IMG/VR virus record: IMGVR_UViG_3300045988_103846
Source: a virus
Reading direction: 5' to 3' (one strand)
DNA: 64,000 nt
Each line of letters begins with the position of its first letter. Position 1 is the first letter of the stretch. The position numbers were made by a program, and so were the translations under genes. This document shows positions 4,019 through 62,849 of this stretch, one piece after another. The notes under the pieces were generated by a model. It had not been told where the DNA came from. It searched no databases and was given only the letters and a program-made list of their open reading frames with translations.

Positions 4019-4669
4019 ATGAAAACGAAAGGCACAAACGGCTCAGAAGTTCACAGGTTGAAGACATTTGAGCACGTGGATGAAAAATTATTCAACCGAC
4101 TCTGGAAGACTTGCCAGCCCCTGATAAGGAAGCTGTCCAGGAATATAGATCTCCGGAAGTACAATGTCTCCCAGGATGTTATACAATCTTACTTTGAGGA
4201 CAAGTTCCTCTATGTCTACAACAAATATCAGGATAAATATGATGAGGATCATCTAAAATATACCCTGATACATTCCCTTACTCAATTCAGAAACAAGCTA
4301 CTTAGGGCAGCCTATACTGAGCAAGCAGAGTTTAATGATGACATGAGATCTCTAGATGATTTATCAGTGGAGAAAGATTGGGATATAGAAGATGAAGATG
4401 AAACAGCTTATAAATCAGAGCTGTCTCAGAAACTGCATAAATTCATGAAAGAACATCTCACAGATGATGAATATCTTTTATTCATCACTCAGCTCAATCC
4501 CCCTCCATTCTTTGATGAGAGAATCAAGGAGTCTCATGGAAGGATATCTGCTTATGCTTTGATTGAGTTCTTTGAGCTCCCGAAGAACATGAGATCCCAG
4601 GAGATTATATCCCAGATGAGGGCGGATATTCAGGAAGCTCTAGACTTAGCTGCTAGAACTTTACGCTAA
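4019..4669 (+). CDS. putative sigma-70/ECF-like transcription factor (216 aa)
   Basis: Region-2-like spacing (FNRLWKTCQPLIRKL...SQDVIQSYFEDKFLYVYNKY...LIHSLTQFRNKLLRA) and a C-terminal helix-rich segment (LTDDEYLLFITQL...IISQMRADIQEALDLAARTL). The similarity is weak and judged by eye only. Confidence 0.35.
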   Translation: MKTKGTNGSEVHRLKTFEHVDEKLFNRLWKTCQPLIRKLSRNIDLRKYNVSQDVIQSYFEDKFLYVYNKYQDKYDEDHLKYTLIHSLTQFRNKLLRAAYTEQAEFNDDMRSLDDLSVEKDWDIEDEDETAYKSELSQKLHKFMKEHLTDDEYLLFITQLNPPPFFDERIKESHGRISAYALIEFFELPKNMRSQEIISQMRADIQEALDLAARTLR

Positions 4670-7820: not shown

Positions 7821-10625
7821 CTAGCTAATTAGGGCAATCCATGATTCACCAGTGGCAGCACTAACATCCATCGTACAATCATTATTCAAGGATCCAAAAT
7901 CCCAGCCCCCATAAGATTGATCACCATCCTCATCAAACGGAGCTAACCACTTATCACCAGCAACCACAGTATCACTATCAGGACTCGTACCTACTGAGAA
8001 TCCAAAACTCATATTAGCTGAAATAGGCTCTGCGGTTAAATTTATATGTCCATCATGGGCTTCTGAAATTGTGGTATAAACACCATCATTGTTAATCAAG
8101 AATATCTCCCATCCATCAAAGATTATATAATTAGTTGACTGAGTCAACGGTATAACTCGATAGAAGCTTATATTCTTAATTATATTACCGTCTGAATCGG
8201 TTGAAGTGTTAATGTTGTCAAAAGGTTGAATAGGGATCACCGGAGCATAGCATATCTCGCTTCCTGCATGGTAATAAAGACGTAAGAATGCTTTTATACC
8301 ATAATCTGTAGGATCTTGTGAAAAGGCCACAGGGAATGTGCCCGTAAGGGTCATCTTACGAGTAGAAAGCATGTTCACACCGTAAGTCTCTGAGAGCTCT
8401 ATAGAGTTCGTATTTCCTGAAGCTGCAAAGTCTAACAGCTGATTCTTCAGATTAGAAGTAATAAGGTCATACTCATAGAACACAAAAGTAGTATTGGTAA
8501 AGTGAGTCTTAGAAGTGGATCCAAACACTGGAACTACGTTAGCTTGGGTACTTCCATTCTTAACCCAGAAGTAGAGATAGTTGTAACCCTGCCAATCACC
8601 TTCATTAAGCTTACTAGATAGCTGTTCTATAACAGAGTGTGCAACTGATAGACCAAGATCACTGTCATTTACATAATCAGTTGTCCCTAATTCAATATGA
8701 TCTTCATTAAACTCATTGAGAGTTCCAAATGGTGATACACAAATGGTGATATCGCCTGAAGAGACATTCAACTTACCACAAACTTCATGAGTAATAGTGA
8801 GAGTGTGAGCTTGTTCAGCAGAAGCATCCTGTGTACAATTGCAAGTGGCAATCACATCTCCAGTAGAAGCTTTAAGAACGAGATCAAAGGTTCTCTCTGA
8901 AGAAGTGTTAACATCCGGTGCCAGAGACAAGCTCTTATTTCCGGTACCACTTATTGGTAGCGAGTTGCCACTTACTAAACTGTTGCCAACGTAAGAAGGA
9001 CCATCGATAGTCCAACCAACATTATCTGGATCAGAGATATTCAAATCCAAGCCTGATGGGGATAGATCACTTTGACCATTGCTGTCAAAGCGGAATGTAG
9101 TAGGAACATTCCAAGAAGGACTAACTAAAGATTCCTGATGGTAGGATATAGATGCTGTAGTTGACTTGTTCCCCTCGCCCGTTATCTTCATTTCAATAGT
9201 ATCATCTCTGCTTAGGCCCGTGATGTTCTTACCAACAGTGGCCTTGAGATTAAGCTCATCAATGGTTACCAAACTTGGTACTGATGTGAACTCATAGGTA
9301 AAATCAGTTATAGTTCTAGTAGCACCAGAAGTATAGGTGGCTGTCTGGTTCGGGGATACCTTAGCGGCTATATCTACATCCCCACCAGTCTTTGGAATGT
9401 TTACAGTTGTAGATGTGGCATTAACTGATGAATAGGTTACTTGGTTGGCCTGTTGGTACACATCAATGCTTTGGGTTACTTTAGAGCCATTCCAGGTTAT
9501 AGTGGCTGTAACTGTGTCAAGTTTTGTTCTGGCCTTAACAGTTGAACCAAGATTTGAGCCGTTTACCGTTTTAGACAACGTAATGATAACATCTGAGGAT
9601 GTTATAGAAAGAGTATCGGATTCTCCAGAAGAATAATCAATCTTGCCTGAAGCTGAGATAAAGTTTGGTGAGTCAGCTGAGCCACCAGATGCTGGGATAT
9701 CGTCTAATGAAACAGAAGCAGAGCTTAAAGTGTAGGTGGCCTTATTAGAACCCTGTTTTACAGAGTCGGTGGAAGTTAAGGTCTGACCATTAACGATAAT
9801 GGTTATCTTAATAAGGGCTAACTTATAAGAATCAGTGATGTTCTTTCCCAGAGAATCCATAACTAGCTCTCCTGTTTGCTCGTTTAAGGTCCAGTTATAA
9901 GGGGAACCAGGAGGATCAGTATAATAAGTGTATTTTACAGAATGAGAAGAATTAGATTGTGTAAGAGTTCCACCACCGGATGTTTTGCCATTCCATCCCC
10001 AAGGGATTGAAAATTCGTAAGAAGGGGTAGCAACTCCTCCTTCTGCGCCGATATTCCAATTAGAATATCTCATATTGACACTTGCAGTGCCGTAGGTCTT
10101 CTCGCCTTCTGTCTGGGTAATAGTGATGATTTTAGAAGATACCCCAGGATCACCCGAATCTCGAAGCCTGAAAGTGATGTCCCTAGAGTTCTCTGTCTGA
10201 TTCTCCGCCACGTCAAAAGAGATCTCAAAAGTGTAAGAGCTAGATGCTCCAGGATCACCCGATATCTGATGAGAGGCGTTCCCGTCCCAGGAATAGGCCG
10301 TCCCGTTTACCTTAAGGGCAAAGTTTGAAAGTAAAGAAGAATTAGTGAGATTAGTCAGCTTCAGAGACGGCGAGTTGCTAGTGCCAGTGATTTTCACGGT
10401 GCCACCAAGAGCTGTGACAAAATAATAAGCCTTGTCTACTGTGATAAACTCACCAGCTCCAATCTGTGAGAGAACTACAGAATCATAGGCCCCACCAGAG
10501 GTAACACCTTTGATAGAGCCTGATCTGCTTGACCTTCCAGTATGGGAGCTTGCTTTTAATGATCTTGTTCCTGAGCCACTTCCTGTAGACCCAGATACTA
10601 CAGTGATCCAACTTGGTTTTGCCAT
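7821..10625 (-). CDS. BACON/Ig-like repeat fibre or surface-binding protein (934 aa)
   Basis: The N-terminus MAKPSWITVVSGSTGSGSG...RSGSIKGVT...VVLSQ reads as the distal two thirds of a BACON repeat. There are multiple S/T/G-rich repeats ending xTxxQ (ITITQ, IDVYQ). It lies at the distal end of the tail-fibre block. Confidence 0.65.
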   Translation of the reverse strand: MAKPSWITVVSGSTGSGSGTRSLKASSHTGRSSRSGSIKGVTSGGAYDSVVLSQIGAGEFITVDKAYYFVTALGGTVKITGTSNSPSLKLTNLTNSSLLSNFALKVNGTAYSWDGNASHQISGDPGASSSYTFEISFDVAENQTENSRDITFRLRDSGDPGVSSKIITITQTEGEKTYGTASVNMRYSNWNIGAEGGVATPSYEFSIPWGWNGKTSGGGTLTQSNSSHSVKYTYYTDPPGSPYNWTLNEQTGELVMDSLGKNITDSYKLALIKITIIVNGQTLTSTDSVKQGSNKATYTLSSASVSLDDIPASGGSADSPNFISASGKIDYSSGESDTLSITSSDVIITLSKTVNGSNLGSTVKARTKLDTVTATITWNGSKVTQSIDVYQQANQVTYSSVNATSTTVNIPKTGGDVDIAAKVSPNQTATYTSGATRTITDFTYEFTSVPSLVTIDELNLKATVGKNITGLSRDDTIEMKITGEGNKSTTASISYHQESLVSPSWNVPTTFRFDSNGQSDLSPSGLDLNISDPDNVGWTIDGPSYVGNSLVSGNSLPISGTGNKSLSLAPDVNTSSERTFDLVLKASTGDVIATCNCTQDASAEQAHTLTITHEVCGKLNVSSGDITICVSPFGTLNEFNEDHIELGTTDYVNDSDLGLSVAHSVIEQLSSKLNEGDWQGYNYLYFWVKNGSTQANVVPVFGSTSKTHFTNTTFVFYEYDLITSNLKNQLLDFAASGNTNSIELSETYGVNMLSTRKMTLTGTFPVAFSQDPTDYGIKAFLRLYYHAGSEICYAPVIPIQPFDNINTSTDSDGNIIKNISFYRVIPLTQSTNYIIFDGWEIFLINNDGVYTTISEAHDGHINLTAEPISANMSFGFSVGTSPDSDTVVAGDKWLAPFDEDGDQSYGGWDFGSLNNDCTMDVSAATGESWIALIS

Positions 10626-10693: not shown

Positions 10694-12346
10694 TTATTCA
10701 AGAGTCCAGCTGTCGTTTGACTCTATAGTGAGCTCCTTGGATTCTCCGGCAGCCACAAAGGTGAGGCTCTCTGGAGTGAGGTTGATGTAGGAAGAAGACC
10801 CCTGCTGACTAAACGTGAAGTCTCTGGTGGCAGTCTTGCTGCCCTCGCCGGTGACAGTAACTGTCACTACAAAGCCTCCACGAGGCTCCGTAGTAGGGTT
10901 GGCTCCAACAGAGACGATGCCGTCAGAAGAGAGAGCAAACCCAGTTGCGGCGGTCTTGACCTTTGGACTGAGATCAAAGACAACCGCAGCAGTAGTGCTG
11001 GCCTCTGTTCTGGTGGCGCCAGAAGTATAGGTGACAGTCTGCTTAGCTCCAACATTGGAGTTGTCGGTCATGTTGCGGCTTTGGGTACCATCTGCCTTGA
11101 GTGAAATCTCTGTGGCAACGGCAGAGTCAAAGGTGATGTCACCGTAAGTGGCGGTATTGGCTGCCTGATATACATCCACAGAAGCGGACTTGGTAGCTGT
11201 AGTCTTCCAGGTAACTGTAGCAGTGAGAGTGCCTTTCTTAGTTCTGTTGGTAACAGTAGTACCAAGTGAAGCAGCTGAAACTCCCTCACTAAATGTGATG
11301 GTACAATCATCAGAGCCGTTGGTGAGGGCAACATCACTGGTGACTGAACCTGAGGTATAGGTTTTGGAACCCTTGGCTGTAACGGTGGCAGAAGATACTG
11401 AACCTCCGGAAGCTGGGATGTCAGCTGGAGCAGCCAGTTTCACATCTGTAACGGCATAGGTTACAGAGTTAGCCTGCTGGCTAACTGAAACTTCCTTGGA
11501 AGCGGACTTGCCGTTAGCCGTGAGGGTGATGGTCACTGTTCCTGAAATTACCGCACCAACAGTAGTGCCACGGGAAGCCGCAGTCACCTGACCCGTAGCT
11601 GTGGCAAGGGTAAGGGCTTCTGGCCAGCCCGTCTTAGTTGCATAAGCAACAGTGCCACCGGTAGTAATGGTGCCACCCCCCGAGGTAACACCGTTCCATC
11701 CCCAAGGCTGGGAGAAGGAAACAGAAGGAGCATCAACTGTACCACCGGCAGCAGGGATTTGCTGATAAGTGCCCACGGTGAGGGTAACAGCACCATAAGA
11801 CTTAACACCCTTGGCCTGAGTGATGGTGATAGCTTCTGTGGTCACATCGCCGTTACCATTCTGAAGCTTGATCTCCAATGTTCTGGCAGCTTCTGTCTTG
11901 TTCTCTGGGATCTTGACGTCGATAGTGAAGGTGAATTCTGCATTCTTACCCGGATCGTCATCAATGCCCGTGTCAGTCTTTCCATCCCAAGAATCATCAT
12001 TGACTGCGTTGACTTGGATCTTGTAGGCTGCCCCAGGGATAATCTTGCCCGTAGTCTCGGCCACCTTGATGTTTGCCGTATTTGCGGTACCAGTGATCTG
12101 AATGGTGTCAGAACCGTCAGAGTTGCTACCTTTTGCAGCGGCATTGTAAGTCTTGGTCGGCACATTAATGAACTCAGCCTTACCGGCCTGAGAAACTGAA
12201 GTAGTGTCGGTTGCACCTCCAGTTGTTTTAGCAGTGATTGTTCCACCTCTCTGCTGACGACCCGTGTACTCACTGGCGGTAACAGTTGTGGAATCGTTCA
12301 TGGAACCTGAGCTCTTGCCCAGTTTGATCCAACTCGGTTTTGCCAT
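10694..12346 (-). CDS. BACON/Ig-like repeat fibre or surface-binding protein (550 aa)
   Basis: The N-terminus MAKPSWIKLGKSSGS...GGTITAKT...TSVSQ is paralogous to that of the 934-aa ORF. Internal repeats end ITITQ, VSVSQ, VDVYQ and FTFSQ. The C-terminus ends mid-repeat (ELTIESNDSWTLE*). Confidence 0.65.
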   Translation of the reverse strand: MAKPSWIKLGKSSGSMNDSTTVTASEYTGRQQRGGTITAKTTGGATDTTSVSQAGKAEFINVPTKTYNAAAKGSNSDGSDTIQITGTANTANIKVAETTGKIIPGAAYKIQVNAVNDDSWDGKTDTGIDDDPGKNAEFTFTIDVKIPENKTEAARTLEIKLQNGNGDVTTEAITITQAKGVKSYGAVTLTVGTYQQIPAAGGTVDAPSVSFSQPWGWNGVTSGGGTITTGGTVAYATKTGWPEALTLATATGQVTAASRGTTVGAVISGTVTITLTANGKSASKEVSVSQQANSVTYAVTDVKLAAPADIPASGGSVSSATVTAKGSKTYTSGSVTSDVALTNGSDDCTITFSEGVSAASLGTTVTNRTKKGTLTATVTWKTTATKSASVDVYQAANTATYGDITFDSAVATEISLKADGTQSRNMTDNSNVGAKQTVTYTSGATRTEASTTAAVVFDLSPKVKTAATGFALSSDGIVSVGANPTTEPRGGFVVTVTVTGEGSKTATRDFTFSQQGSSSYINLTPESLTFVAAGESKELTIESNDSWTLE

Positions 12347-42206: not shown

Positions 42207-43274
42207 TTATTTCTTTCTCTTTTTAGAAAGGGTTTGGGAAAACCTTTTTCTCTTTCTTTTTTCTTTCTTTCTCTTGTCTAAGGCTGATCTCAAGCAGCTT
42301 CTCAACCAAAGCCCGATCTCATATACAGCTCCCTTTGAGAGAGCATTTCTCCCCTTGTTCAGCCAATAGGTGGGATTAGACTCATCAAACCAGACCTTGA
42401 ACCTCTTAGGGAATCCCATTATGACTCTGAACTCCTCAAGACCCATAGGCCACCCCTCTGGGTTGAACTGCCTATTTGAAGGTCTAAGAGTGAGAGGGGG
42501 AGCCCAGTTCCTGTTTCTGTATACTCCGGGGAGGGTTTTCATCTTCTGGGTTCTCATTGGCCACTTAAACTCTTGCTTGAACTTCCCATTCCATAGCTCA
42601 TGTACTTCATCTACAGTCAAAGTAGTTCTATTTGGGTCCCAATACTTGTACATTGACAGCTTTCTATCCCCCGTTTCTCGGTAGTTTAGCTCGGGTCTAA
42701 TCATCCCAGAGATGTCACAGGTAAGGAATCTTTCACGCCTCCCAGAGAAAATTCTAGAGAAATATTTTTCAAATTCAGTGGAATCAGCTCGTATTCCCAC
42801 TAATAGAAGCCTCTTTCTCGAAGTTTGGGAATTACCAAATGCCGAAACTGAATGGGAATGGACTATAAACTTGTACCCAGGCAAATTTGCTTCCCACTCG
42901 GGCAGTGGAATTAGGTCTAAGAGCTTCGGAAGATTCTCCATGACAAAGATTCTGGGTGTAAATTTTTTGACACATGACAGGAAAAGGTTCAAACATACGT
43001 CTTCACGGGGTTTCCCAAGGGTCTTTTTTCTCGAGTAAGAGAAAACAGAGCTGTGACCACAGGAGGGAGACCCCACAATCATGTCTGGGCTATCAATTTT
43101 CAGAGCATCAAGACTTTTTACAAACGGTACTTCCCCGAAATTCAGTCTCCACTGCTCTTCGTTTGGGGTATGAAACACCCCTCGAGGCTCGATGTTACCG
43201 ATCAGCCATCTTCTCAACGGGTACAGAAGAGCTCCTTGAGCTCCACAGACACCCAAAATCTTCCAGTTTTGCAT
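42207..43274 (-). CDS. DNA (cytosine-5) methyltransferase with a K/R-rich C-terminal tail
   Basis: Motif I-like KILGVCGAQGAL. Motif IV-like GSPSCGHSS (PC dipeptide context). Motif VI FVMENLPKLL (ENV-like). Motif VIII-like SQTSRKRLLLVG. Start moved to the ATG at 43274 (MQNWKILG...). The C-terminus is KRKKEKRKRKRFSQTLSKKRKK. Confidence 0.7.
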   Translation of the reverse strand: MQNWKILGVCGAQGALLYPLRRWLIGNIEPRGVFHTPNEEQWRLNFGEVPFVKSLDALKIDSPDMIVGSPSCGHSSVFSYSRKKTLGKPREDVCLNLFLSCVKKFTPRIFVMENLPKLLDLIPLPEWEANLPGYKFIVHSHSVSAFGNSQTSRKRLLLVGIRADSTEFEKYFSRIFSGRRERFLTCDISGMIRPELNYRETGDRKLSMYKYWDPNRTTLTVDEVHELWNGKFKQEFKWPMRTQKMKTLPGVYRNRNWAPPLTLRPSNRQFNPEGWPMGLEEFRVIMGFPKRFKVWFDESNPTYWLNKGRNALSKGAVYEIGLWLRSCLRSALDKRKKEKRKRKRFSQTLSKKRKK

Positions 43275-43304
43275 TGTTTCAAAAGAATTGAGTATATGAG
43301 GTAC

Positions 43305-43317
43305 AAAACTGGTCTTG
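43305..43317. repeat. 13-mer AAAACTGGTCTTG, copy 3 of 3
   Basis: Exact repeat, about 30 nt upstream of the methyltransferase ATG in the minus-strand sense. Confidence 0.8.
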
Positions 43318-43354
43318 CGAGGAGCTATTTCAATGCAAATAATCAAAATTTTCA

Positions 43355-43693
43355 ATGCAAATGAATCAAAACAGATTGAAAGTAGGGGATCCAGTGCTCA
43401 TAACAGGGTCCTTTCACTATGACAAAGCTCTGGTGGAGAAGGTAGAAAAGGGGGTTGTATACCTCAACAACGGGATGAAGATAGATCATAACTATCAGAA
43501 TCTCCAGAGATCTGAGTGCACCGCTCAGCCTTGGGATGAAGCAGAGTGGGAATACCAGAGGGCTATGCACTCTTATAAGAGCAATCTCACTATCATTCGG
43601 GACAATTTCCCTGCTCTGGAGAAGCCCTATGCTATCGGGATCAACCAGAAGCTCGAGAAGATAATCAATAAGTATGGCTTCAAACACATGTAA
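43355..43693 (+). CDS. hypothetical protein (112 aa), first gene of the plus-strand operon
   Basis: ATG ORF, 2-nt gap to the next gene. Confidence 0.6.
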   Translation: MQMNQNRLKVGDPVLITGSFHYDKALVEKVEKGVVYLNNGMKIDHNYQNLQRSECTAQPWDEAEWEYQRAMHSYKSNLTIIRDNFPALEKPYAIGINQKLEKIINKYGFKHM

Positions 43694-46864: not shown

Positions 46865-46920
46865 ATTATTAATTTTTAGCAAAATGACAGGTAATTTCTT
46901 ACAACTTTTTTAAGTCTTTT

Positions 46921-46960
46921 ATAAGTAGGTTAAAATTACCTAATTAAAAAACCTACTTAT
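46921..46960. repeat. 11-bp perfect inverted repeat upstream of the island operon
   Basis: ATAAGTAGGTT (46921-46931) ... AACCTACTTAT (46950-46960), with an 18-nt spacer. Confidence 0.85.
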
Positions 46961-47633
46961 ATAATGACAATGTAGCCGATATATAGGGTTACTTTTAGAC
47001 AATACGCCTAATTTCACGTATGGTATATTATACCCTTATAATAACATATTTTTCAAACTTGTCAAAGAACTTTTCAACCCCCTCAACCTTACGACGACAA
47101 AGATATGGCGACTTTTTATTTCTTGCAAATTTTCTGATTAATTTTATCAAAATTTGAAGTTAATAGCCCTTACAGATATTTCTAAAGCATTATTTTTTTA
47201 GCCGACTTTCAAATTTGATACGCAAAATCTAAAACCATTTAATATAAAAATCGTTTTAAGAGTATAAAATATTTTATAAACACCATTTGTTTTTTGTTTA
47301 ATAAAATTTTACTAAATATTTTATAATATTTTAATAAAAAGTTTAATTTGGAAAAGTTCCGAATTTGGAATGACTATAATTTTTGGGAGGGACAAAAGTT
47401 GGCCGGGGTGCGTTGAGTTGGTGGTCCCAGCCGTGTATGTATTCTACGTCTGTGGCCATGTTACCAGTCCTAAAGTTGGACGGTATGTGCATGACGTAAT
47501 GAAATATGGCCATTGTAGCGCAGTAATGTATACTTATGCTATGGCCATGTTACCCGGTACGTATGGTAATATTACTCTAGTAATGAGTTAGATGGCTTCT
47601 GAAAGCGCTATGGGAATCTTACCTGTGGGAATC

Positions 47634-47830
47634 AGATAGCGAATTAGCCAAATAGTGTCAGATAGGCCTTTAGGCCATATAAGATAGCGCTATAGATAGC
47701 CATTTATGCTAAACCTATTTTTAACCTCTACAAAGGGCCTCTTAGAGGTACGTAGAGAATGTTGCTATAAGCGCGTAAAGAAAAGGCCCTATGTGTAGTA
47801 GGGCCTAGATAGCTAGTTAGCGAATTAGCC
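47634..47830. repeat. iteron-like short direct repeats (AGATAGC x4, plus one AGATAGG variant at 47660-47666; TAGCGAATTAGCC x2)
   Basis: AGATAGC at 47634, 47682, 47694 and 47807. TAGCGAATTAGCC at 47637-47649 and 47818-47830. TGGCCATGTTACC occurs at 47452 and 47542, just upstream. Confidence 0.8.
47771..47806 (-). terminator. rho-independent terminator after the A1-B1 cassette
   Basis: The minus strand reads AGGCCCTA ctacaca TAGGGCCT followed by TTTCTTTAC. Confidence 0.7.
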
Positions 47831-47832
47831 TG

Positions 47833-48204
47833 TTAGCATTCCAGTTGGAATATGGCCAGATGGACCTCCCGTAGGGTGTAACAGTCTATGAATAGGTTGT
47901 CATCGTCCAGTAGTTCCCGTATTCCTTTGACCGTTCGGTAAAAGTCCCCACTGGTTTCAGTGTTGATCTTGAAGGCAAAGCCCCAGAGGGAATCGTCGTT
48001 ATCCTGAGTAGTTTCCAGATGGATATCCAGGATCTGGATATCGGTCCTGTTCAGTAGATCTGGATCCCCATATTGAAGGAGAAGATCGAAGTAACCAGGG
48101 TCTTCTGTATCTCCCGTGTAGATGTGACCTTCGCAAGTTTTGTTCTGTTCCAGGTATTTGCCGATTGTGATGAGCTGTTCCGAGAATGTTGCATTTGTTT
48201 TCAT
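47833..48204 (-). CDS. acidic small protein, family B paralogue 1 (123 aa)
   Basis: Start at the ATG at 48204 (MKTNATF...). Shares EDPGYFDLLLQ..DP, IQILDIHL, LLDDD and the terminal QLEC with 50676..51074 (ENPGYFDGLLQ..DP, IQILDIHL, LLDDD, QVEC). Confidence 0.65.
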   Translation of the reverse strand: MKTNATFSEQLITIGKYLEQNKTCEGHIYTGDTEDPGYFDLLLQYGDPDLLNRTDIQILDIHLETTQDNDDSLWGFAFKINTETSGDFYRTVKGIRELLDDDNLFIDCYTLREVHLAIFQLEC

Positions 48205-48239: not shown

Positions 48240-48800
48240 TTAGAGAATGATGCAAGGTGCATATTCGTTGAAGTTGCTGTTGAGCCCCGTTTCCCAGTTA
48301 GTTATCGTTGTATCGATTTGGGCATACTTTGGGATCAGGTTGTCGTAGAGTTCCGTCCAGGTTTTGAGTGGAAGTTCCTGTAGAGCTTTCTGAATGGTAG
48401 CATTGTTGGAGTTTGTTAGTGCCTTAAGCATAGAGAAGAAAGCATCGATTCCGTTAGGGATATAGTCGAAGCATTCGTTATCTGTGAATGCAGTGAGAAT
48501 CCCCCTGATGAGATTTGCGAAGGCTTCTGTGATGAAGAGTTCCAGTGTTCCTGTGTAACCATCCTTGGTATTGATGGAGTAGACCCTGAAGTTTTCGAGG
48601 GAGTAGTCTTCCAGTAACCTTTGAACTGTTTCAGTTCCGATTTGGGTTTTGAGAGCATCCAGATTGGCATCATTCGCCAGTCTGATAGAGTTGAACTGAG
48701 TAACCATTGGATCGAAATCCTGATTGTTGCAGTTGATCTGCATGAATGTAACTTGTTGCATAACGTTTGTGTGTTTTGAGTTGTTGTTAGTATGTTGCAT
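48240..48800 (-). CDS. acidic small protein, family A paralogue 1 (186 aa)
   Basis: MQHTNNN... N-terminus, then FMQINCNNQDFDP, LRVY-type strand and ECFDYIPNGIDAFFSML...W..LYDN. Aligns with four other ORFs. Confidence 0.7.
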   Translation of the reverse strand: MQHTNNNSKHTNVMQQVTFMQINCNNQDFDPMVTQFNSIRLANDANLDALKTQIGTETVQRLLEDYSLENFRVYSINTKDGYTGTLELFITEAFANLIRGILTAFTDNECFDYIPNGIDAFFSMLKALTNSNNATIQKALQELPLKTWTELYDNLIPKYAQIDTTITNWETGLNSNFNEYAPCIIL

Positions 48801-48856
48801 ATTGCATTTAATTTTATTTATGCAAATATAATAATAATATATTGCAATGCAAAAGG
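48801..48856 (-). promoter_or_regulatory. early promoter copy (P1)
   Basis: The minus strand reads CTTTTGCATTGCAATATATTATTATTATATTTGCATAAATAAAATTAAATGCAAT-ATG, i.e. TTTG, a 19-nt spacer, then TATATTTG. Positions 48794-48852 (59 nt) are identical to 51648-51706. Confidence 0.65.
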
Positions 48857-49848
48857 GCCGCCAACAGCTCTACCGGAGCTATTTTTAACCCTATAAAATA
48901 AGCCTCAAAGAGGAAGATTTTAGGGGTACGTAGTGTAATTATATCCTCGGTAAGTTGGGAATTTCTAGGAAAGTTGGGCAATATTACCTCTATGGTAAGT
49001 TTACCTTAGGGTATATTGGTAGGGCCCAAAGGCTTTAGTGGCCTATACAATTCTTACTAAACTTTATTCTAGACCTACCCTATGTAGTTGAGCCCTGGCG
49101 CTCATTTGTTGAGCTAGATGAACAAAGGCCAAAAGGCTCAATCTCCTGGAGCCCTGTGGAGTCCCAGAGTCGCGCTAAACTCACTTTTGAGACTCTCTTA
49201 CTTTTACCATACGTAAATACCTTAAATTAACACGTAGCTTTTTAACCAACAGCATTATATATAGGGGGAAGCTCCTAAAGGCCTTTTTTGACTTCGTGTT
49301 CATTTCCATAGTAACTTAGCTAGCGTTTTGGCTCTTCTACAAAAATTACAAATTTTTCAATTTTAGCTCTCCACGGCTTTCGCTATCTCGTAACAGAGCA
49401 CTTCCGGATCTCCCCGTTCGCGGATGGCCGGTGCCGCCTGACGTCTACCCCATTTGACTAATACTTCCTCCCAATCTGACAAGAAAATTACTAATAAAAA
49501 ATTACCCACAGAATGAACAAAAGAGAAACTGACCAACTACATACTTTGAAAGTGAGAAGGTAAGGAAAGAAAGAAAAGAGTATAGTGTTAATGTATTGTA
49601 TTTCATATAGAGGAGTATAACGTATAGCCCCTTTATGTATATGTATATGTATATAATGTATACGTAGCCTTGTGTTAGTGGCTTTTATATAATTGTTTTG
49701 TTTTTTGGGGTGAGGGGGGTTTTTGGGATATGTGTATACGCCAGAAGAGAGATACCTTTATGGAAGTATCTCTCTTAGTTTTAGGGTTAGAAGTCTTCTG
49801 AATATATTGTAACCCCTAGTTTTAGTCATAGGTTACTGGTGTGCTTCT
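48857..49848. other. about 1 kb with no ORF of 60 aa or more in any frame; hairpins, short repeats, a GC-rich patch
   Basis: The ORF track is empty here. See the findings for the internal structure. Confidence 0.8.
49635..49661. repeat. hexamer tandem repeat (ATGTAT)3 plus one further copy
   Basis: atgtat atgtat atgtat ata atgtat. Confidence 0.85.
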
Positions 49849-50100
49849 TTAGCTAGAGTATTGGAATGAGAAAGCTTGATAGACTATTCCATCGATGTAT
49901 TTGAGATAGACAGTAGCTTGAATGGAATTGTTGAAATAGACGGAGTCTAGAGAATAATAAGAGTCTAGATGGAGCATTCTTAGCCAGGTCTTTATTTGAT
50001 CCTCTAGGAGCAGTAGATTCTTGTTGTAGAAGAATCTTTGGGTTGCTTGTTGGAGAATCCCTAGCCTGTCCTTTATTGATAGTGTGAGATAATGTTTCAT
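49849..50100 (-). CDS. hypothetical small protein (83 aa)
   Basis: ATG ORF, 11 nt after the stop of the upstream family A gene. Confidence 0.5.
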   Translation of the reverse strand: MKHYLTLSIKDRLGILQQATQRFFYNKNLLLLEDQIKTWLRMLHLDSYYSLDSVYFNNSIQATVYLKYIDGIVYQAFSFQYSS

Positions 50101-50111
50101 TATTTGTGTTT

Positions 50112-50609
50112 TTAGAGTTTTACCATCGGTGTGTGAAAGGGAGAGAATTCGTAATTGAGTCCCATGTGCCAGGTTTTAATCTCGTTTGTCTCTAGATCGT
50201 CCCCGTATTTTTGCATTACGGTATTGTATACTGTTGCCCAGATAGGATCATCTGGAGAATACTCCAGAGTCTGGAGAATAGTGAAGAAGTCTTCGATTTG
50301 GGATGGAATGAAGTCTATCCTGTAGTCATCGTTATCATGTTGAGTGATGATTGCATCAATGATTAAGGTAAAGGTTGTAGCCAGCCATTTATCGAAGTCT
50401 ATACATTTGATTGTGTAGACCCTTAGGTCTCCCTCAATGAGAGTATTTTTGATATCTTGGATATCGTCCGGGTTTACTTTGGAGAAGAATGTTTTGAGTT
50501 GTTCTTCGTTTGGTAATGTTACCTCGGCATGACAGTTGGCTTTGGGGTCGAAGTCCCTGTTGCAGCAGTTAAGCTGCATAAAGGTGATGTTGTTGTTTGT
50601 GTGTATCAT
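50112..50609 (-). CDS. acidic small protein, family A paralogue 2 (165 aa)
   Basis: MIHTNNNITFMQLNCCNRDFDP...LRVYTI...IDFIPSQIEDFFTIL... Confidence 0.7.
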   Translation of the reverse strand: MIHTNNNITFMQLNCCNRDFDPKANCHAEVTLPNEEQLKTFFSKVNPDDIQDIKNTLIEGDLRVYTIKCIDFDKWLATTFTLIIDAIITQHDNDDYRIDFIPSQIEDFFTILQTLEYSPDDPIWATVYNTVMQKYGDDLETNEIKTWHMGLNYEFSPFHTPMVKL

Positions 50610-50675
50610 AATGTTTTATTTTTGGTGTTTTTTGGGAGGGGGCTAGAGGGATTGGGACTAGCCCCCTGGTATATA

Positions 50676-51074
50676 TTAGCATTCGACTTGGATTATGATA
50701 TATCCTGAGTCTAGCAAGACTCTGTGATCTATTGCAACTGAGTCATCGTCCAGGAGATCTCTTAGACTATAGAGGTAGTCTGGTATCAAGTCTGGATCAT
50801 TTGTTGGATTCGGGATGTAGAATGCAAATGACCAGCAGCTTGAGTATGGTGGATTTGGATATGTTGGGATATCCAGGTGGATGTCCAGAATCTGGATATG
50901 GTCATCGTCCAGGATATTGAGTTCAGGTATATCCGGGTTGTAGGGGTCTTGGAATTGGAGTAGTCCGTCGAAATAGCCCGGGTTCTCTGAGTCAAAGGTG
51001 ATGATTGTGCATTCTGGGTGTTGTGCTTGTAATTCGATTCCCCAGTCTTTGAGTTGTTTTCTGAGTGTTTTCAT
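50676..51074 (-). CDS. acidic small protein, family B paralogue 2 (132 aa)
   Basis: See 47833..48204. By hand count about 24 D/E versus 6 K/R. Confidence 0.65.
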   Translation of the reverse strand: MKTLRKQLKDWGIELQAQHPECTIITFDSENPGYFDGLLQFQDPYNPDIPELNILDDDHIQILDIHLDIPTYPNPPYSSCWSFAFYIPNPTNDPDLIPDYLYSLRDLLDDDSVAIDHRVLLDSGYIIIQVEC

Positions 51075-51123
51075 GATTTATTGAGTTTTGTGGAGCCCTT
51101 TGTTAGAGGGCTCCGAGTTTGAC

Positions 51124-51654
51124 TTAGATAATGATAGCAGGGAAATCGAATTCAGCTTTGAGCAGTGATTCCCATGTTGGAAGGTCCGTGTCGATGTAGC
51201 GATAAGTCCCTCTGCCTGGGTGACCGAATGTTTCCATATAGGCATCGTAGAGTTTCCCGTAGAGATCCAGATTTATTTGAGGGATATACTGGATTTGGGA
51301 TTGGATCAGCACCTGCAGTATTGATGAGAATTCATAGATTCCGCATGGGATATCGTCGAAGCAGGTATCGTCCCCTGAGGCAGTGAGCAGATCGTGCATG
51401 AGATTGGAGAAGACTTCGTTGAGGAAGTTTTCCAGTGTGAAGGAGAATTCGAGATGAATGGTGTAAAGGTGGAATTCCTCGATTTCGCAGTCAGCAGGCA
51501 AGAATTTGTCTGGGGTGTTGACCCGTTCCTTGTAGAGATGGAAGAGTTCCGGGGTGAGTTCCTCTGATTGAGAGTATTTGGTATTGAACCAATGGGTTTC
51601 GCCCGTGTAGTTATGGGCAATGAGTTTGATTGTGTTTTTGTTTGTGTGTTGCAT
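51124..51654 (-). CDS. acidic small protein, family A paralogue 3 (176 aa)
   Basis: MQHTNKN...FHLYTI...TCFDDIPCGIYEFSSIL...LYDAYM... Confidence 0.7.
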   Translation of the reverse strand: MQHTNKNTIKLIAHNYTGETHWFNTKYSQSEELTPELFHLYKERVNTPDKFLPADCEIEEFHLYTIHLEFSFTLENFLNEVFSNLMHDLLTASGDDTCFDDIPCGIYEFSSILQVLIQSQIQYIPQINLDLYGKLYDAYMETFGHPGRGTYRYIDTDLPTWESLLKAEFDFPAIII

Positions 51655-51710
51655 ATTGCATTTAATTTTATTTATGCAAATATAATAATAATATATTGCA
51701 ATGCAATGGG
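51655..51710 (-). promoter_or_regulatory. early promoter copy (P2), identical to P1
   Basis: 59-nt identity with 48794-48852. Confidence 0.65.
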
Positions 51711-51716
51711 GCCCCG

Positions 51717-52031
51717 TTAGAGCTTCTCGCAGAGCTTTTCGGGAAAGTTAATTATGAATTTGTATTCCCCGAGTTCTAGATTCTCTTTGAGGCCGTTTTG
51801 GCGGGTTATTTTGATATACTTAGTAAAGGTATCTATATTCCCGTGACAGATATAGAGGAAAGTATTGTACTTCACCTGGTGTTCAAGTAGATCTGCATGA
51901 TCTGGATTAGACTGAGTGAACTTGAGAATGAAGACCATTTGGTGACCCTGTCTCTTAGAGTGATATCTGAAGTTGAGACCCCATTTCTTGAAATGGGAGA
52001 TCCAGCGTTGCACTTTTGTAGTGAAATACAT
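51717..52031 (-). CDS. hypothetical small protein (104 aa)
   Basis: ATG ORF, 4 nt after the upstream stop. Confidence 0.5.
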   Translation of the reverse strand: MYFTTKVQRWISHFKKWGLNFRYHSKRQGHQMVFILKFTQSNPDHADLLEHQVKYNTFLYICHGNIDTFTKYIKITRQNGLKENLELGEYKFIINFPEKLCEKL

Positions 52032-52035
52032 ATTC

Positions 52036-52401
52036 TTAGTCTTTTGAGTGTGTCCAATTTATGAATAGTATATGATCACTTTCGTCATATTGAAAGACAA
52101 GAACCTCCTGGTGTCCCTTGTAACTACCGTAAATAAAGGTAATTTTTCGAATCATCTCGAAACTGTCCCATTGGAATTTCTTATGAGTATGGCCTGCATA
52201 AAAGGTCTTCTCCAGAATAGTTTTGAAGTGATCCCTAATGAAGTCTACTGTAGGGTTGTCGGGAATATCAGTGATATACCAGGTAGTGTCTTTGATATCA
52301 TAAAGAAAGCTCTTTATCTTAGCTCCCTGGAGTTGGCATATCTCCTGTAGTTTCTTAGTGAGATATATTTCTCTGTCTAGATTAGTTGGAAGATTGTACA
52401 T
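52036..52401 (-). CDS. hypothetical small protein (121 aa)
   Basis: ATG ORF. Confidence 0.55.
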   Translation of the reverse strand: MYNLPTNLDREIYLTKKLQEICQLQGAKIKSFLYDIKDTTWYITDIPDNPTVDFIRDHFKTILEKTFYAGHTHKKFQWDSFEMIRKITFIYGSYKGHQEVLVFQYDESDHILFINWTHSKD

Positions 52402-52456
52402 AGCTAGCGATTTTAAGTTTGGGGGAGGGGTTGCCTCCCCCTGATGAGTCCCCGAT

Positions 52457-52900
52457 TTACTTTGTCATGGCCTTGAGAAAGCGGTTGTATGCTTCTTGGT
52501 TTTCTTCCTTGGTATTGGATTCGAAGAGCTTATTGATGTCCCGATAGGTTTCCTTGGCATAGGAGGTCCAGTCTTTCTTGAGTTCTTGGATAGCCTTGTC
52601 ATCCTTGTTCTTGAGAGCTTTGTCATATTTGGAGACATAGCTGGCAAGGGTATGCCTGAGCTCCCTGCGTTTGGCTTTTTTCTGCAGTGAGGTGAGGCCA
52701 GCCATTACCTGATCGGTGTAGACTGATACCCTGACGGATTTTACCTTGGTCTCTTTCTTGGCCTTGGTCTCCTTTGTTGGGGTGTCGGCTGCTTTTGCAG
52801 TTACTTCCTGGATAGAGTTTTCCAGTGTCTCAGTGTTGATGAGTTCGGCCTTTTGTGTTTTCTGGGTCTTAGCCTTGACCTGTTTCTTTGTTGTTTTCAT
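52457..52900 (-). CDS. K-rich protein, family C paralogue 2 (147 aa)
   Basis: Lys-rich N-terminal half. The C-terminal half aligns with 46484..46864. Confidence 0.6.
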   Translation of the reverse strand: MKTTKKQVKAKTQKTQKAELINTETLENSIQEVTAKAADTPTKETKAKKETKVKSVRVSVYTDQVMAGLTSLQKKAKRRELRHTLASYVSKYDKALKNKDDKAIQELKKDWTSYAKETYRDINKLFESNTKEENQEAYNRFLKAMTK

Positions 52901-52930
52901 GATGTGTAATATTTAGTATTAGTACTTGAA

Positions 52931-53470
52931 TTAATCTTGGATGAAGATAGCAGGCATATCTGGTATAGTGGTCATTCCCTGTTCCCAGGTGAGAAACCCT
53001 GTTCCGATGTAGTTTGGACTTGTCTCGTCATCCGGGTCAAAGGATTGCATATATGTGTTGTAGAGATTAGCCCAGAGATTGAGATCGCATTCGGGTAAAG
53101 CTTTCTGAATATCGGGATTGTCAGATTCCTTGAAAGCCCGGAGCACTGAAAAGAATTCCTCGATAGCACTTGGGATGTAGTCAAAGCATTCATCGTCTCC
53201 GACAAAGGTAACCAGATCTTTGAGAAGGTTACCGAAAGCTTCATGAAGAAAGATGTCAGCTGCCCAGGATGTACCGTGTATCTCATAGACTGATAGACAT
53301 TCGGTTCCCATTATTTCGAGCCTTTCGAGCTGTTCCTTGTTGAGTCTAGCCTTGTAGAGTTCAAGTTGTTCTGAGTTTGGGAACCCCTGGATTGTAGTAC
53401 TTGTGCAAAGGAGATATGTCTCCCCGTTGTTTGCATTGAAGCTGATGAATTTAGTGACTGTGTTTTGCAT
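52931..53470 (-). CDS. acidic small protein, family A paralogue 4 (179 aa)
   Basis: MQNTVTKFISFNANNGETY...LSVYEI...ECFDYIPSAIEEFFSVL...LWANLYNTYMQ. By hand count about 29 D/E versus 9 K/R. Confidence 0.7.
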   Translation of the reverse strand: MQNTVTKFISFNANNGETYLLCTSTTIQGFPNSEQLELYKARLNKEQLERLEIMGTECLSVYEIHGTSWAADIFLHEAFGNLLKDLVTFVGDDECFDYIPSAIEEFFSVLRAFKESDNPDIQKALPECDLNLWANLYNTYMQSFDPDDETSPNYIGTGFLTWEQGMTTIPDMPAIFIQD

Positions 53471-53540
53471 AAAATTTATTAATTTTTAATTTGCAATGCA
53501 AATATAATAAGGAAGTTGCTCTAGTTATTGAGAGCTGCTA
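53471..53540 (-). promoter_or_regulatory. early promoter copy (P3, long form)
   Basis: The minus strand reads GCAGCTCTCAATAACTAGAGCAACTTCCTTATTATATTTGCATTGCAAATTAAAAATTAATAAATTTT-ATG. Confidence 0.65.
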
Positions 53541-53786
53541 TCATAGCTGCTTGAGGAGCTCATCTAGCTCATTTTCTAGCATTGTCACCCTCTCTTTTAG
53601 AACTCGATCTGTTTTACATTGGAAACAATCATATTGATACCTTTTACAGTATTTATTCCCATTCTTTTTCAGGTAGTAGAATGCTGCACAATATCTCGTG
53701 GATAAACGTTCCCTCTCATAAAGTACTAATTGCTGTGCTGCTAATTGAAATACCTGAGAAACGCATTTTCTTTCTTCGGTAGTCAT
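53541..53786 (-). CDS. hypothetical small Cys-containing protein (81 aa)
   Basis: ATG ORF. YCKRYQYDCFQCK. Confidence 0.5.
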   Translation of the reverse strand: MTTEERKCVSQVFQLAAQQLVLYERERLSTRYCAAFYYLKKNGNKYCKRYQYDCFQCKTDRVLKERVTMLENELDELLKQL

Positions 53787-53790
53787 ATTC

Positions 53791-54033
53791 TTATACCATT
53801 TCTAGCCATTCCTTTGCAAGAGCCTCAGTGTTGAAATCTTGGATTATGAGCATGATGTTAGTGTTGTCCCAAGCAGTCCAGGCATCACTCTCTGGGTCAT
53901 AGTGATAACCTTTCTGATAGCCCGGTTTGAGAGTTTTGATGTCTCTATCCTTATCCAAGAATCGTTCCCGGATAAGGTGTTCCAGTCTTTTTTGTGAGGC
54001 TTTACCTCTCAGTATTTGTACCCGTGTTTTCAT
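53791..54033 (-). CDS. hypothetical small protein (80 aa)
   Basis: ATG ORF overlapping the upstream gene by 32 nt. Confidence 0.5.
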   Translation of the reverse strand: MKTRVQILRGKASQKRLEHLIRERFLDKDRDIKTLKPGYQKGYHYDPESDAWTAWDNTNIMLIIQDFNTEALAKEWLEMV

Positions 54034-54331
54034 CTTCGATGATGTTTAGAGCAAATTTAGTTATGACCCTGATCTGAACCCTGAGACCCGCAAGATAGAC
54101 TTTTACTGTCTTGCCTTCTGAGAAAGCCTGAGCAGCAATTGTAGCACCCAATTCTGAAAGCCTTTGGTCTAGATCCTTAAGAGCAATTTCTGGATTCTCA
54201 TCGTCCCAGAGTCCCAAGTTTGAAGATACATCCTGGAGAACTTCCTTTGGAAGGATTCCGATTCCCTGTGCCAGGTTCATATATGTCCAGAGCCTGTCTT
54301 GGTAGTTGAGTTTTGATTTGAATGTGATCAT
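54002..54331 (-). CDS. hypothetical small protein (109 aa)
   Basis: Start moved to the ATG at 54331 (MITFKSKLNYQ...). The track's extension is a translation of the promoter copy. Confidence 0.55.
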   Translation of the reverse strand: MITFKSKLNYQDRLWTYMNLAQGIGILPKEVLQDVSSNLGLWDDENPEIALKDLDQRLSELGATIAAQAFSEGKTVKVYLAGLRVQIRVITKFALNIIEDENTGTNTER

Positions 54332-54400
54332 AATGTTTATTAATTTTTTAATTTGCAATGCAAATATAATAGGGGAGTTGCTAGGGTTATCGAGAGCTCC
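54332..54400 (-). promoter_or_regulatory. early promoter copy (P4, long form)
   Basis: The minus strand reads GGGAGCTCTCGATAACCCTAGCAACTCCCCTATTATATTTGCATTGCAAATTAAAAAATTAATAAACATT-ATG. Its distal part overlaps the last codons of 54387..54887. Confidence 0.65.
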
Positions 54401-54887
54401 CATCTGAAGCTCTAATCAGGGTATAGCAAAACCTTTTTGCATCCCCAGGAGCCATCTCTATGGTATAGGGCATAAGCTCCTCATTAGCATATAACCTGAG
54501 CTGATTGTTACGAGGTTTCTCGATAACTTGAGCAGGACCAATACCACATAGGTCTCCAGGAAGAATCTCGTCAGCTTCTAAATAGAGAGCGAACAGTTCT
54601 TCCTTCTGTTTCGGGAGAAGCTGCAGAATGAATTCATCATCGGTTCTGAGTATGCACCTCCGGTATCGTCCCAAGAAATCTTTGATGAAGATGCGATTGT
54701 AGTGAGCATTGAAGCTGAATCCCAGTTTATCATCTCCATAGAAGTAGATAGCACCTTCGATAGAGTTCTTATAGAAGCCCTTAAGAGGAGTATAGAAAGG
54801 ATTTCCCGTAAAAGAAATATTGATGAATACGGTGCCTGAAAGCTTTGGATCAAGCAGTGCATTGAGAATTTGTTTTGGTGTTGCCAT
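54387..54887 (-). CDS. hypothetical protein (166 aa)
   Basis: ATG ORF. Confidence 0.55.
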   Translation of the reverse strand: MATPKQILNALLDPKLSGTVFINISFTGNPFYTPLKGFYKNSIEGAIYFYGDDKLGFSFNAHYNRIFIKDFLGRYRRCILRTDDEFILQLLPKQKEELFALYLEADEILPGDLCGIGPAQVIEKPRNNQLRLYANEELMPYTIEMAPGDAKRFCYTLIRASDGSSR

Positions 54888-54928
54888 GTTGTTAAAAGTT
54901 TTAAGGGGATCTTAAAGACCCCCTTGGA

Positions 54929-55444
54929 TTAATAAAGTAAGAAAGCTGGGAATCTTGGTGTCTGATTCATCCCCTGTTCCCAAGTGAGGATATCAGTGTC
55001 GATGTATCCCGGAGCTTTTTGCATATAAGTATTGTAAATACTAGCCCAGAGATCAAGATTGCATTGAGCAAGCCCCTCCCTGATGTTAGGGTTATCTGAC
55101 TTGCTAAAAGTCTGCAGCACTGAGAAGAATTCTTCAATAGAAGCTGGAAGAAAGTCCTCCCGTTCATCTTCCCCGAAAGCCCCGATTAATTCTTTGAGAA
55201 GATTACCGAAAGCTTCCTTGATAAAATCTTCGATAGCATAAGGTCTAGAACCCTGGAGAAGTTCATAGACTGAGAGGCACTCTGGATCAAATTCTTTGAG
55301 CTGTTCTGGAGTGAGTTTAGCTAAGTAGAAATCGATCTGATAAGAATCAGGTCTTCTTTTAAGCGAATTCCCCGTGACAAGGGTGAAAGTATCCATGTTG
55401 CAGCTGTTGAAGCTGATAAACCAGACTAGATTGTTGTTTTGCAT
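54929..55444 (-). CDS. acidic small protein, family A paralogue 5 (171 aa)
   Basis: MQNNNLVWFISFNSCNMDTF...LSVYEL...EDFLPASIEEFFSVL...LWASIYNTYMQ. Confidence 0.7.
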   Translation of the reverse strand: MQNNNLVWFISFNSCNMDTFTLVTGNSLKRRPDSYQIDFYLAKLTPEQLKEFDPECLSVYELLQGSRPYAIEDFIKEAFGNLLKELIGAFGEDEREDFLPASIEEFFSVLQTFSKSDNPNIREGLAQCNLDLWASIYNTYMQKAPGYIDTDILTWEQGMNQTPRFPAFLLY

Positions 55445-55512
55445 AATGTTTATTAATTTTTAATTTGCAATGCAAATATAATAAAGGGGTTGCTCTAGTT
55501 ATCGAGAGCTCT
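55445..55512 (-). promoter_or_regulatory. early promoter copy (P5, long form)
   Basis: The minus strand reads AGAGCTCTCGATAACTAGAGCAACCCCTTTATTATATTTGCATTGCAAATTAAAAATTAATAAACATT-ATG. Confidence 0.65.
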
Positions 55513-55544
55513 ATTGAGAGCCCAGAAGATCTCCACTCCTACCC

Positions 55545-62342: not shown

Positions 62343-62849
62343 TTACTTCTTGGACTTCTTGGACTTCTTTTCCTTTTTAGGGAGCTCAATGCCCAATTCC
62401 TTGGCGATCGCCTTGCGAAGCTTCTCAACCTCTTCCTCGTCGAAGTCGTCTGGGTCGGTATCGAGATCCTGATCATCGCATACATCCTCGAGCTCTTCGA
62501 AGTCCATGTTAGCGAGATCCTCTCCGGTCAGTTCTGGAGTTTCTTCCTCCTCTTCCTCCTCCTCAGTTTCTTCCTCCTCTTCCTCATCGGAGTCGTCCTC
62601 GTCCTCCTCTTCTTCCTCGGATTCCTCATCCTCAGAATCGTCCTCATCGGAGTCGTCCTCCTCTTCGGTTTCCTCTTCCTCTTCCTCCTCCTCAGTTTCT
62701 TCCTCACCGAAGATAGATTCAGCCTCCTCAGCAGTCAGGTCAATTGGAGCAGGGATGATCTGAATTGACCCATCATCAAAAGTGATGATAATGTTACCGT
62801 TGATCTCTTTCCTTGAGATCTCTTTCTTTGCAGCTTTTTTCTTAGCCAT
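62343..62849 (-). CDS. poly-acidic protein (168 aa) with K-rich termini
   Basis: MAKKKAAKKE... N-terminus. A central run of about 55 residues is composed only of E/D/S/T. C-terminal KKEKKSKKSKK. Confidence 0.65.
   Translation of the reverse strand: MAKKKAAKKEISRKEINGNIIITFDDGSIQIIPAPIDLTAEEAESIFGEEETEEEEEEEETEEEDDSDEDDSEDEESEEEEEDEDDSDEEEEEETEEEEEEEETPELTGEDLANMDFEELEDVCDDQDLDTDPDDFDEEEVEKLRKAIAKELGIELPKKEKKSKKSKK
62538..62705. repeat. low-complexity GAA/GAG/GAC codon tract (plus strand is a CT-rich pyrimidine run)
   Basis: tcctcttcctcctcctc-type sequence over about 170 nt. It encodes the acidic tract and creates the spurious poly-Ser ORF on the plus strand. Confidence 0.85.

Follow-up and report, generated by a model that had tools for sequence, protein, structure and literature searches.

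The stretch of DNA considered here (the window) comprises 64,000 nucleotides (nt) of the IMG/VR virus record IMGVR_UViG_3300045988_103846. Its G+C content is about 41%. We focus on five small open reading frames (ORFs) that encode a family of acidic proteins, denoted family A. The members are listed below in the order of their transcription.

A5, 54929..55444, minus strand: 171 amino acids (aa), isoelectric point (pI) 4.32, net charge -12; leads its promoter copy.
A4, 52931..53470, minus strand: 179 aa, pI 4.09, net charge -20; leads its promoter copy; its sequence was used for the structural model.
A3, 51124..51654, minus strand: 176 aa, pI 4.57, net charge -17; leads its promoter copy and is followed by gene B2.
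A2, 50112..50609, minus strand: 165 aa, pI 4.42, net charge -15; the most divergent family A member.
A1, 48240..48800, minus strand: 186 aa, pI 4.47, net charge -10; leads its promoter copy and is followed by gene B1.

The five ORFs are true, diverged paralogues. The first-pass annotation of this DNA, made by inspection of the sequence, had proposed that they align from end to end, and alignment, BLASTP and a profile hidden Markov model (HMM) all agree with it. Pairwise identities among the five are 25-47% (BLASTP), in line with the earlier estimate by eye of less than 50%. The extreme E-values are 8e-4 (50112 vs 51124) and 7e-55 (52931 vs 54929). The HMM built from the five members recovers exactly A1-A5 among the 558 six-frame ORFs of the window, with the next match at E 0.7. 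The organisation of the five copies as an "arsenal" is confirmed; that it serves anti-restriction is a possibility.

The genes are accompanied by a repeated promoter. The 14-mer TTATATTTGCATTG (at most two mismatches) occurs nine times in the window, against 0.78 copies expected. The copies are located at 48818, 51672, 53494, 54356, 55468, 58368, 59792 and 61481 on the minus strand and at 3985 on the plus strand. Hence eight of the nine are minus-strand copies within 48.8-61.5 kb, and none is found in the 38-kb structural module of the window. The lone plus-strand copy precedes the ORF 4019-4669, beside the DnaB gene. That four of the five members come first behind a promoter copy had been noticed before and is borne out: the copies are placed 21-27 nt upstream of the ATGs at 48800, 51654, 53470 and 55444. 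A2 is the exception, being the sole member without its own copy (none before 50609); a GC-rich hairpin lies between B2 and A2. The four promoter-like repeats are as follows.

Promoter-like repeat of A5, 55445..55523, minus strand: -7 element TATATTTGC at 55480..55472, 27 nt before the ATG.
Promoter-like repeat of A4, 53471..53549, minus strand: -7 element at 53506..53498, 27 nt before the ATG.
Promoter-like repeat of A3, 51655..51713, minus strand: -7 element at 51684..51676, 21 nt before the ATG.
Promoter-like repeat of A1, 48801..48859, minus strand: -7 element at 48830..48822, 21 nt before the ATG.

The sequence TATATTTGC is an exact match to the -7 consensus of Bacteroidota, TANNTTTGY (PMC12632263). 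In the A5 promoter the palindrome TTTGCA-T-TGCAAA overlaps this element, and upstream there is a GAGCTC box. The perfect palindrome overlaps the -7 element in 7/9 copies; the A1 and A3 copies read TTTGCATAA. The GAGCTC-containing box is conserved about 25 nt upstream, and the short hairpins around it have no clear U-tract. Either the palindrome or the box could be an operator at which a phage regulator switches these promoters off. Since the promoters are concentrated in a functionally dark locus and absent from the structural module, we infer that family A would be transcribed early, by the host RNA polymerase.

One further copy (54356-54369) falls inside the ORF 54002-54403 (minus strand) as it was called. 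The mechanical start of this ORF at 54403 is probably wrong. The repeat puts the ATG at 54334 (110 aa, MITFKSKL...), and 109-aa genes in related contigs agree with this start.

The repeats do not end at the start codons. Direct repeats (families D3 and D4) extend 11-25 nt into the ORFs, and the A3 promoter copy is 93% identical to that of A1 over 84 nt, the first eight codons included. The resulting MQHT leader also stands at the start of unrelated proteins from related phages. The blocks that had been listed as shared by the five proteins are indeed present; however, the N-terminal one, MQHTNN, is not a family-specific protein motif, because it is encoded by the shared promoter-repeat DNA and the same leader stands on unrelated proteins.

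The organisation of the locus was compared between phages by tblastn with the window genes against related loci (designated by L numbers). In transcription order the window reads g291-A5-g166-g110-g80-g81-A4-C2-g121-g104-A3-B2-A2-g83-(1 kb)-A1-B1-...-C1, where B and C are two other paralogous families described below. The occupancy of the family A slots in related phages is as follows.

L002 (83.6-kb contig): four copies, no A2.
L009: three copies (A5, A3 and A1).
L008: two copies (A5 and A3); A1 is lost.
L003/L004: at least one copy, with A5 only in the stretch seen; the A3 slot holds an unrelated gene.

The copy number thus does vary among related phages, from five to at least one, with the genes that flank the slots 85-100% identical across the compared loci. 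No related phage examined has an empty A5 slot, and the alleles found there are 57-94% identical. The A4 slot is empty in L003, L004, L006, L008 and L009, and none of the seven related loci that span the A2 slot (L002, L003, L004, L006, L008, L009 and L011) has A2. Phages without A4 keep the A4 promoter, which then drives C2 directly; at this junction the homology stops right after the promoter palindrome and returns in the first codons of C2. In the A3 slot of L003 (13285-13638) there is an unrelated ORF of 117 aa, which starts with MQHTQSQN, that is, with the inherited promoter-proximal leader. In some variants of family B the A1 leader is fused ahead of the usual MKT start. The alleles of the A4 and A5 slots have a synonymous divergence (dS) of 0.8-2.3 against about 0.1-0.6 in the flanks, which argues for allele replacement and not for fast point evolution. 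Family A is accessory, and its genes are gained, lost or swapped at the promoter and leader repeats, presumably through recombination between them.

Family A is without a known relative by sequence or fold. There is no match to Pfam-A, which includes the ArdA family PF07275, at E<=1 (hmmscan with the five members), nor to ArdA at E<=0.1 with 18 members. The family A members and their neighbours have no Pfam, PHROG, NCBIfam or PADLOC match above chance; the PADLOC profile matches to family A are at chance level (E>=0.019). The family profile was also compared with the sequences of the PDB, which holds ArdA and Ocr structures. At E<=10 it matches only the unrelated entries 3fh3 and 3fgg (best E 0.25), with neither ArdA nor Ocr among them. 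A match to DUF6270 is confined to the A1 subtype (2/18 members) and scores 21 bits against a cut-off of 27.5 bits; we treat it as chance.

Relatives are found in metagenomes. A word-indexed search of 5.8 billion proteins gives 35 clusters of family A, all of them unnamed and all metagenomic, with up to 181 member sequences. An exhaustive profile search of 1.84 billion representative proteins gives 11, of which one is spurious and two are genuine distant relatives. The spurious one, P0038 (1511 aa, E 4e-12), is a repeat protein that matches a single 37-residue stretch seven times. The distant relatives, P0037 and P0041, are encoded second behind the same promoter motif in unannotated contigs; P0041 is a singleton, and its contig is equally unannotated. 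Neither the locus nor A4 has a match among 50,697 phage records (megablast, tblastn). The portal proteins of MT121964 and MT835790 are 62% identical to that of this phage, yet both phages are without family A. Scans of IMG/VR and of 185,579 bacterial and archaeal genomes found no relatives, and since these IMG/VR and GTDB scans gave none there is no prophage-based assignment of the host. The contigs that bear family A are repeatedly 80-84 kb long. In these searches the family is restricted to one clade of gut myoviruses of about 80-84 kb.

The AlphaFold2 model of A4, built from 18 sequences, is confident, with a predicted local distance difference test (pLDDT) score of 90.4 and a predicted template-modelling score (pTM) of 0.89. 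It is a compact alpha/beta structure, in which strands 5-11, 26-29, 59-65 and 175-177 are packed with seven helices. Foldseek finds nothing in the PDB better than E 0.3 for this model, and ArdA is not among the 50 matches listed. The sole match in BFVD is the uncharacterised 136-aa protein of Myoviridae sp. ct3Pt8 (E 0.015, template-modelling scores 0.39/0.49), which is uninformative.

The invariant and near-invariant columns of the family A alignment are mostly hydrophobic, with N, S, T, D and E in addition. None of them is a conserved H, C, K or R. The members are 92-188 aa long and have no domain fusions. Given this makeup and the lack of fusions, family A is probably a binder and not an enzyme. 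Columns 17, 77, 92, 93, 97, 104, 105 and 163 each carry an acidic residue in five or more of seven diverse members. These approximately eight positions form one local cluster and not an array over the whole surface: the motif GDDxxFDxIPxxIEEF at the junction of helices 3 and 4, together with E/D17, E77 and E163. D97 and P100 are invariant even in P0037 and P0041.

The ratio of nonsynonymous to synonymous divergence (dN/dS) between family A orthologues is 0.10-0.52. This is purifying selection, looser than on g291, g166 and C2 (dN/dS 0.01-0.13), and with values of at most 0.52 gene-wide positive selection is ruled out. Among 35 distinct A1 orthologues, residues 6-13 and 51-68 hold most of the variation, and the C-terminal two-thirds are nearly invariant. 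The model and the substitution pattern together indicate that family A is a folded protein under selection.

The low pI of the family (4.09-4.57, net charge from -10 to -20 over the five members) has a particular origin. D and E make up 11.3-16.4% of the residues, against a mean of 13.1% for the 80 predicted proteins of the phage, and K and R make up 5.0-7.6% against 12.3% in the phage proteome. Hence the low pI is mainly the result of K/R depletion. The earlier hand count for 52931..53470 (29 D/E and 9 K/R) is exact. The description of the family as strongly acidic is overstated. In relation to globular expectation the acidic content of family A is about 1-1.5x, compared with about 2.8x for Ocr.

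A different protein of the phage is far more acidic. The 168-aa ORF 62343-62849 (minus strand) has 47% D/E, a net charge of -0.36 per residue and pI 4.05. It consists of E/D-rich imperfect repeats (repeat families D1 and D2) and has no Pfam or PADLOC match. By composition, its product is a far stronger candidate for a DNA mimic or polyanion than family A.

The neighbouring genes include the two further paralogous families, B and C.

B2, 50676..51074, minus strand: 132 aa, pI 4.05, directly downstream of A3.
B1, 47833..48204, minus strand: 123 aa from the ATG at 48204, pI 4.21, directly downstream of A1.
C2, 52457..52900, minus strand: basic protein of 147 aa, pI 9.8, directly downstream of A4; paralogue of C1.
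C1, 46484-46882, minus strand: basic paralogue of C2.

B1 and B2 are about 40% identical and acidic, and family B, with 43 clusters, likewise occurs only in this phage clade. The model of family B (pLDDT 87) has no PDB fold match, and a kinship with family A is ruled out (hhalign probability 0.1%). The proteins of family C are K-rich (pI 9.7-9.8), and C1 and C2 are 33% identical over 72 aa. Two stretches of about 1 kb, 48801-49848 and 46883-47832, contain no ORF in any frame. The former is about 90% conserved at the nucleotide level in L002 and L006 and has a global folding z of -1.0; the latter is AT-rich (33% G+C). Recoding of stop codons in these stretches is ruled out by 18-32 stops of mixed type per frame, and neither an Rfam family nor significant RNA structure was found in them.

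The rest of the window encodes TerL, portal, prohead protease, major capsid protein, tail sheath, tape measure, fibre-like proteins and the DnaB helicase. A C5 cytosine DNA methyltransferase (42207-43355, minus strand; PF00145, E 6e-10) is located just upstream of the terminase genes; with it the phage already has a route around restriction, by self-methylation. Two adjacent minus-strand paralogues, 7821-10625 and 10694-12346 (934 and 550 aa), lie in the structural module, in its tail/fibre part, and are 34% identical over 577 aa (E 1e-67). The 934-aa protein has no PHROG match.

Shine-Dalgarno motifs precede 2/35 genes, against 4.7 at random positions. Together with the G+C content and TATATTTGC, their scarcity points to a Bacteroidota host. 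The candidate family "Flandersviridae" is described as having genomes with a median size of 85 kb, contractile tails and Bacteroides/Parabacteroides hosts (Benler et al. 2021, PMC8008677). Its genomes carry a DnaB/DnaG/PolA module followed by a locus of about 20 kb of ORFs without detectable similarity (PMC8008677). The phage studied here resembles this group in its genome of about 83-85 kb, in its TerL, portal, protease, major capsid protein, sheath and DnaB genes, in its unannotatable locus of about 20 kb and in the signals of a Bacteroidota host. The likeness rests on the description and on the module content, PolA and DnaG being outside the window. PMC8008677 describes neither family A nor the promoter repeats. 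We conclude that the phage matches the "Flandersviridae" description, with family A in its dark locus.

Judged by analogy, the closest described genomic phenomenon is that of the PeSL (promoter-early stem-loop) cassettes, which T4-type phages carry in their hyperplastic regions (Arbiol et al. 2010, PMC2839356; Comeau et al. 2014, PMC4122927). In both cases many copies of a strong promoter of host sigma type lie in a region of small non-essential ORFans. In both, the breakpoints of indels and replacements between near-identical phages fall at the repeats; here they are the A4 junction, the A3 swap and the fusion of the A1 leader with B1. However, the promoter of family A has the Bacteroidota-type -7 element TANNTTTGY, and that of PeSL is of the sigma-70 type. 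The upstream stem-loops are weak here and their role as terminators is putative, so that the stem-loop half of the analogy is incomplete. Unlike in PeSL, the repeat reaches into the first 4-8 codons, and the cargo is a five-member paralogous family instead of unrelated ORFans. Mini-circles are known for PeSL.

Anti-CRISPR and other anti-defence loci consist of small orphan proteins behind strong early promoters, with variable presence and with unrelated small families side by side. The locus of family A is similar in that it has orphan small proteins in promoter-proximal places, presence or absence that differs between close relatives and several unrelated families next to each other. It differs in that no Aca-type helix-turn-helix regulator was recognised nearby in library scans of the neighbours, and five paralogues of one family per genome are unusual for such loci. 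As far as the comparison with Pfam, PHROGs and the PDB reaches, there is no likeness to described anti-defence proteins.

We tentatively suggest that the family A genes are promoter-proximal accessory cassettes encoding non-enzymatic binders of host proteins, with counter-defence or early takeover of the host as their likeliest role. We hold this to be plausible, at slightly less than an even chance. The repeated promoter would be a strong one of the host sigma-A type, with most cassettes first behind it, and expression would begin on DNA entry, with the host RNA polymerase in its unmodified state. Small, soluble and compact, the family A proteins would most probably be stoichiometric binders or inhibitors of host proteins. 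The acidic patch (GDDxxFDxIPxxIEEF with E/D17, E77 and E163) would probably serve as the contact surface for a basic partner, and the diverged remainder of each paralogue would set which variant of the target is bound. Cassettes that are seen to be gained, lost and swapped beside the promoter and leader repeats would be exchanged by a PeSL-like mechanism. The proteins would then act, in counter-defence or in another kind of early takeover, against host factors that vary between strains. Accessory host-interaction genes would be expected to vary in copy number among near-identical phages in this way. A broader anti-defence role, suggested by the genomic context, is plausible but less likely than not. 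The same holds for the more specific proposal that family A, perhaps with family B, comprises anti-defence proteins of a new fold directed against the strain-variable defences of gut Bacteroidota and deployed by promoter-linked cassette exchange.

Several points weigh against the reading of family A as cassettes for host-protein binders. Both its early timing and its binding of a host protein are themselves inferred. The conserved D/E cluster could alternatively be the metal site of an unrecognised enzyme. The variation in A1 is so confined, and dN/dS so consistently below 1, that there is no sequence-level signature of rapid diversifying selection. The hairpins upstream of the promoters are weak (z from -0.2 to -2.1). 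Library scans of the neighbours show no known anti-defence gene adjoining family A and leave the locus unannotatable.

Among the other explanations, the proteins could serve host takeover or regulation unrelated to defence, as sub-functionalised paralogues acting on host RNA polymerase or sigma factor, on replication, on metabolism or on the early-to-late switch of the phage. We consider this rather unlikely. Their promoter-proximal place and small non-enzymatic character agree with it, purifying selection and the conserved C-terminal two-thirds would suit a conserved host target, and the A5 slot is filled in every related phage seen, which suggests that at least one copy is needed. However, each of the slots A1-A4 is empty in at least one related phage seen, and a core function does not normally occur in one to five copies between phages that are about 90% identical. 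There is also no likeness to known RNA polymerase-binding or anti-sigma proteins (the best PDB sequence match has E 0.25). A further alternative is that family A is the cargo of selfish promoter-linked cassettes, or acts in competition between phages or superinfection exclusion, the copy number being a product of cassette mobility. The breakpoints at the promoter and leader repeats, the paralogue pairs of families B and C in the same locus and the precedent of PeSL, where ORFan cassettes shuffle and form mini-circles (PMC2839356), are all compatible with this. Nevertheless, dN/dS of 0.1-0.5 and a fold conserved across paralogues of 25-47% identity mean long-term selection on the protein, and no nuclease or recombinase was found with the cassettes in the library scans of neighbours, so we regard it as quite improbable. 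It is highly improbable that family A proteins are structural accessories or are packaged in the virion and injected. Nothing specific speaks for this; the genes lie outside the structural module, behind host-type promoters that are absent from that module, and no PHROG structural family matches them.

The explanation originally put forward, that of DNA mimics of the Ocr/ArdA type, is not borne out by the tests of sequence, fold and composition. A local acidic patch could nevertheless fill a part of a DNA-binding site. T7 Ocr (gp0.3) is likewise a small acidic protein, the first product from promoters of the host polymerase, with K and R under-represented. ArdA has an elongated fold of three domains and presents its carboxylates in a DNA-like helical array; it shares with family A a length of about 165 aa, acidity and, if the timing proposed here is right, expression first on DNA entry. 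The net charge of -10 to -20 with pI 4.1-4.6, the conserved acidic patch on helices 3 and 4, the first place behind host-type promoters, like that of T7 gene 0.3, and the copy number that differs between related phages are what can be said for mimicry. In addition, Ocr activity needs far fewer than its 34 acidic residues (PMC3439906). On the other hand, of the 116 aa of Ocr 34 (29%) are acidic, where 12 would be expected, and 6 are basic; the protein is an elongated all-alpha dimer (PMC3439906). Family A, with 11-16% D/E against the phage mean of 13%, is a compact alpha/beta globule in the model and not an elongated charged rod. Its conserved acidic columns number only about eight and are clustered. 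It resembles neither Ocr nor ArdA in sequence or fold: Pfam (PF07275 included) gives no match at E<=1, the PDB sequences give no mimic at E<=10, and the Foldseek comparison that had been proposed yields no PDB match under E 0.3. The faint likeness of FISFNANNGE to the YIANLGKYNEG block of ArdA was not recovered by any search. The same phage encodes the far more acidic protein 62343-62849 (47% D/E) and carries its own C5 methyltransferase. Altogether, we consider DNA mimicry by family A improbable.

Gut Bacteroidota phages are among the most abundant human-associated viruses, and we know of almost no anti-defence proteins from phages of Bacteroidota. The "dark" loci of these phages are functionally blank, and family A offers a concrete, cloneable entry point to them, because its genes lie right behind consensus host promoters. 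It is a well-delimited orphan family, frequent in metagenomes and variable in copy number, with a confident model that matches no known fold; nothing in its sequence contradicts current expectations for phage accessory loci. Whatever the function of the proteins, the promoter-plus-leader repeats are a candidate mechanism for the shuffling of accessory genes. If the anti-defence proposal is true, one of the most prevalent groups of human-gut phages would re-assort its counter-defence repertoire between strains by the exchange of such cassettes.

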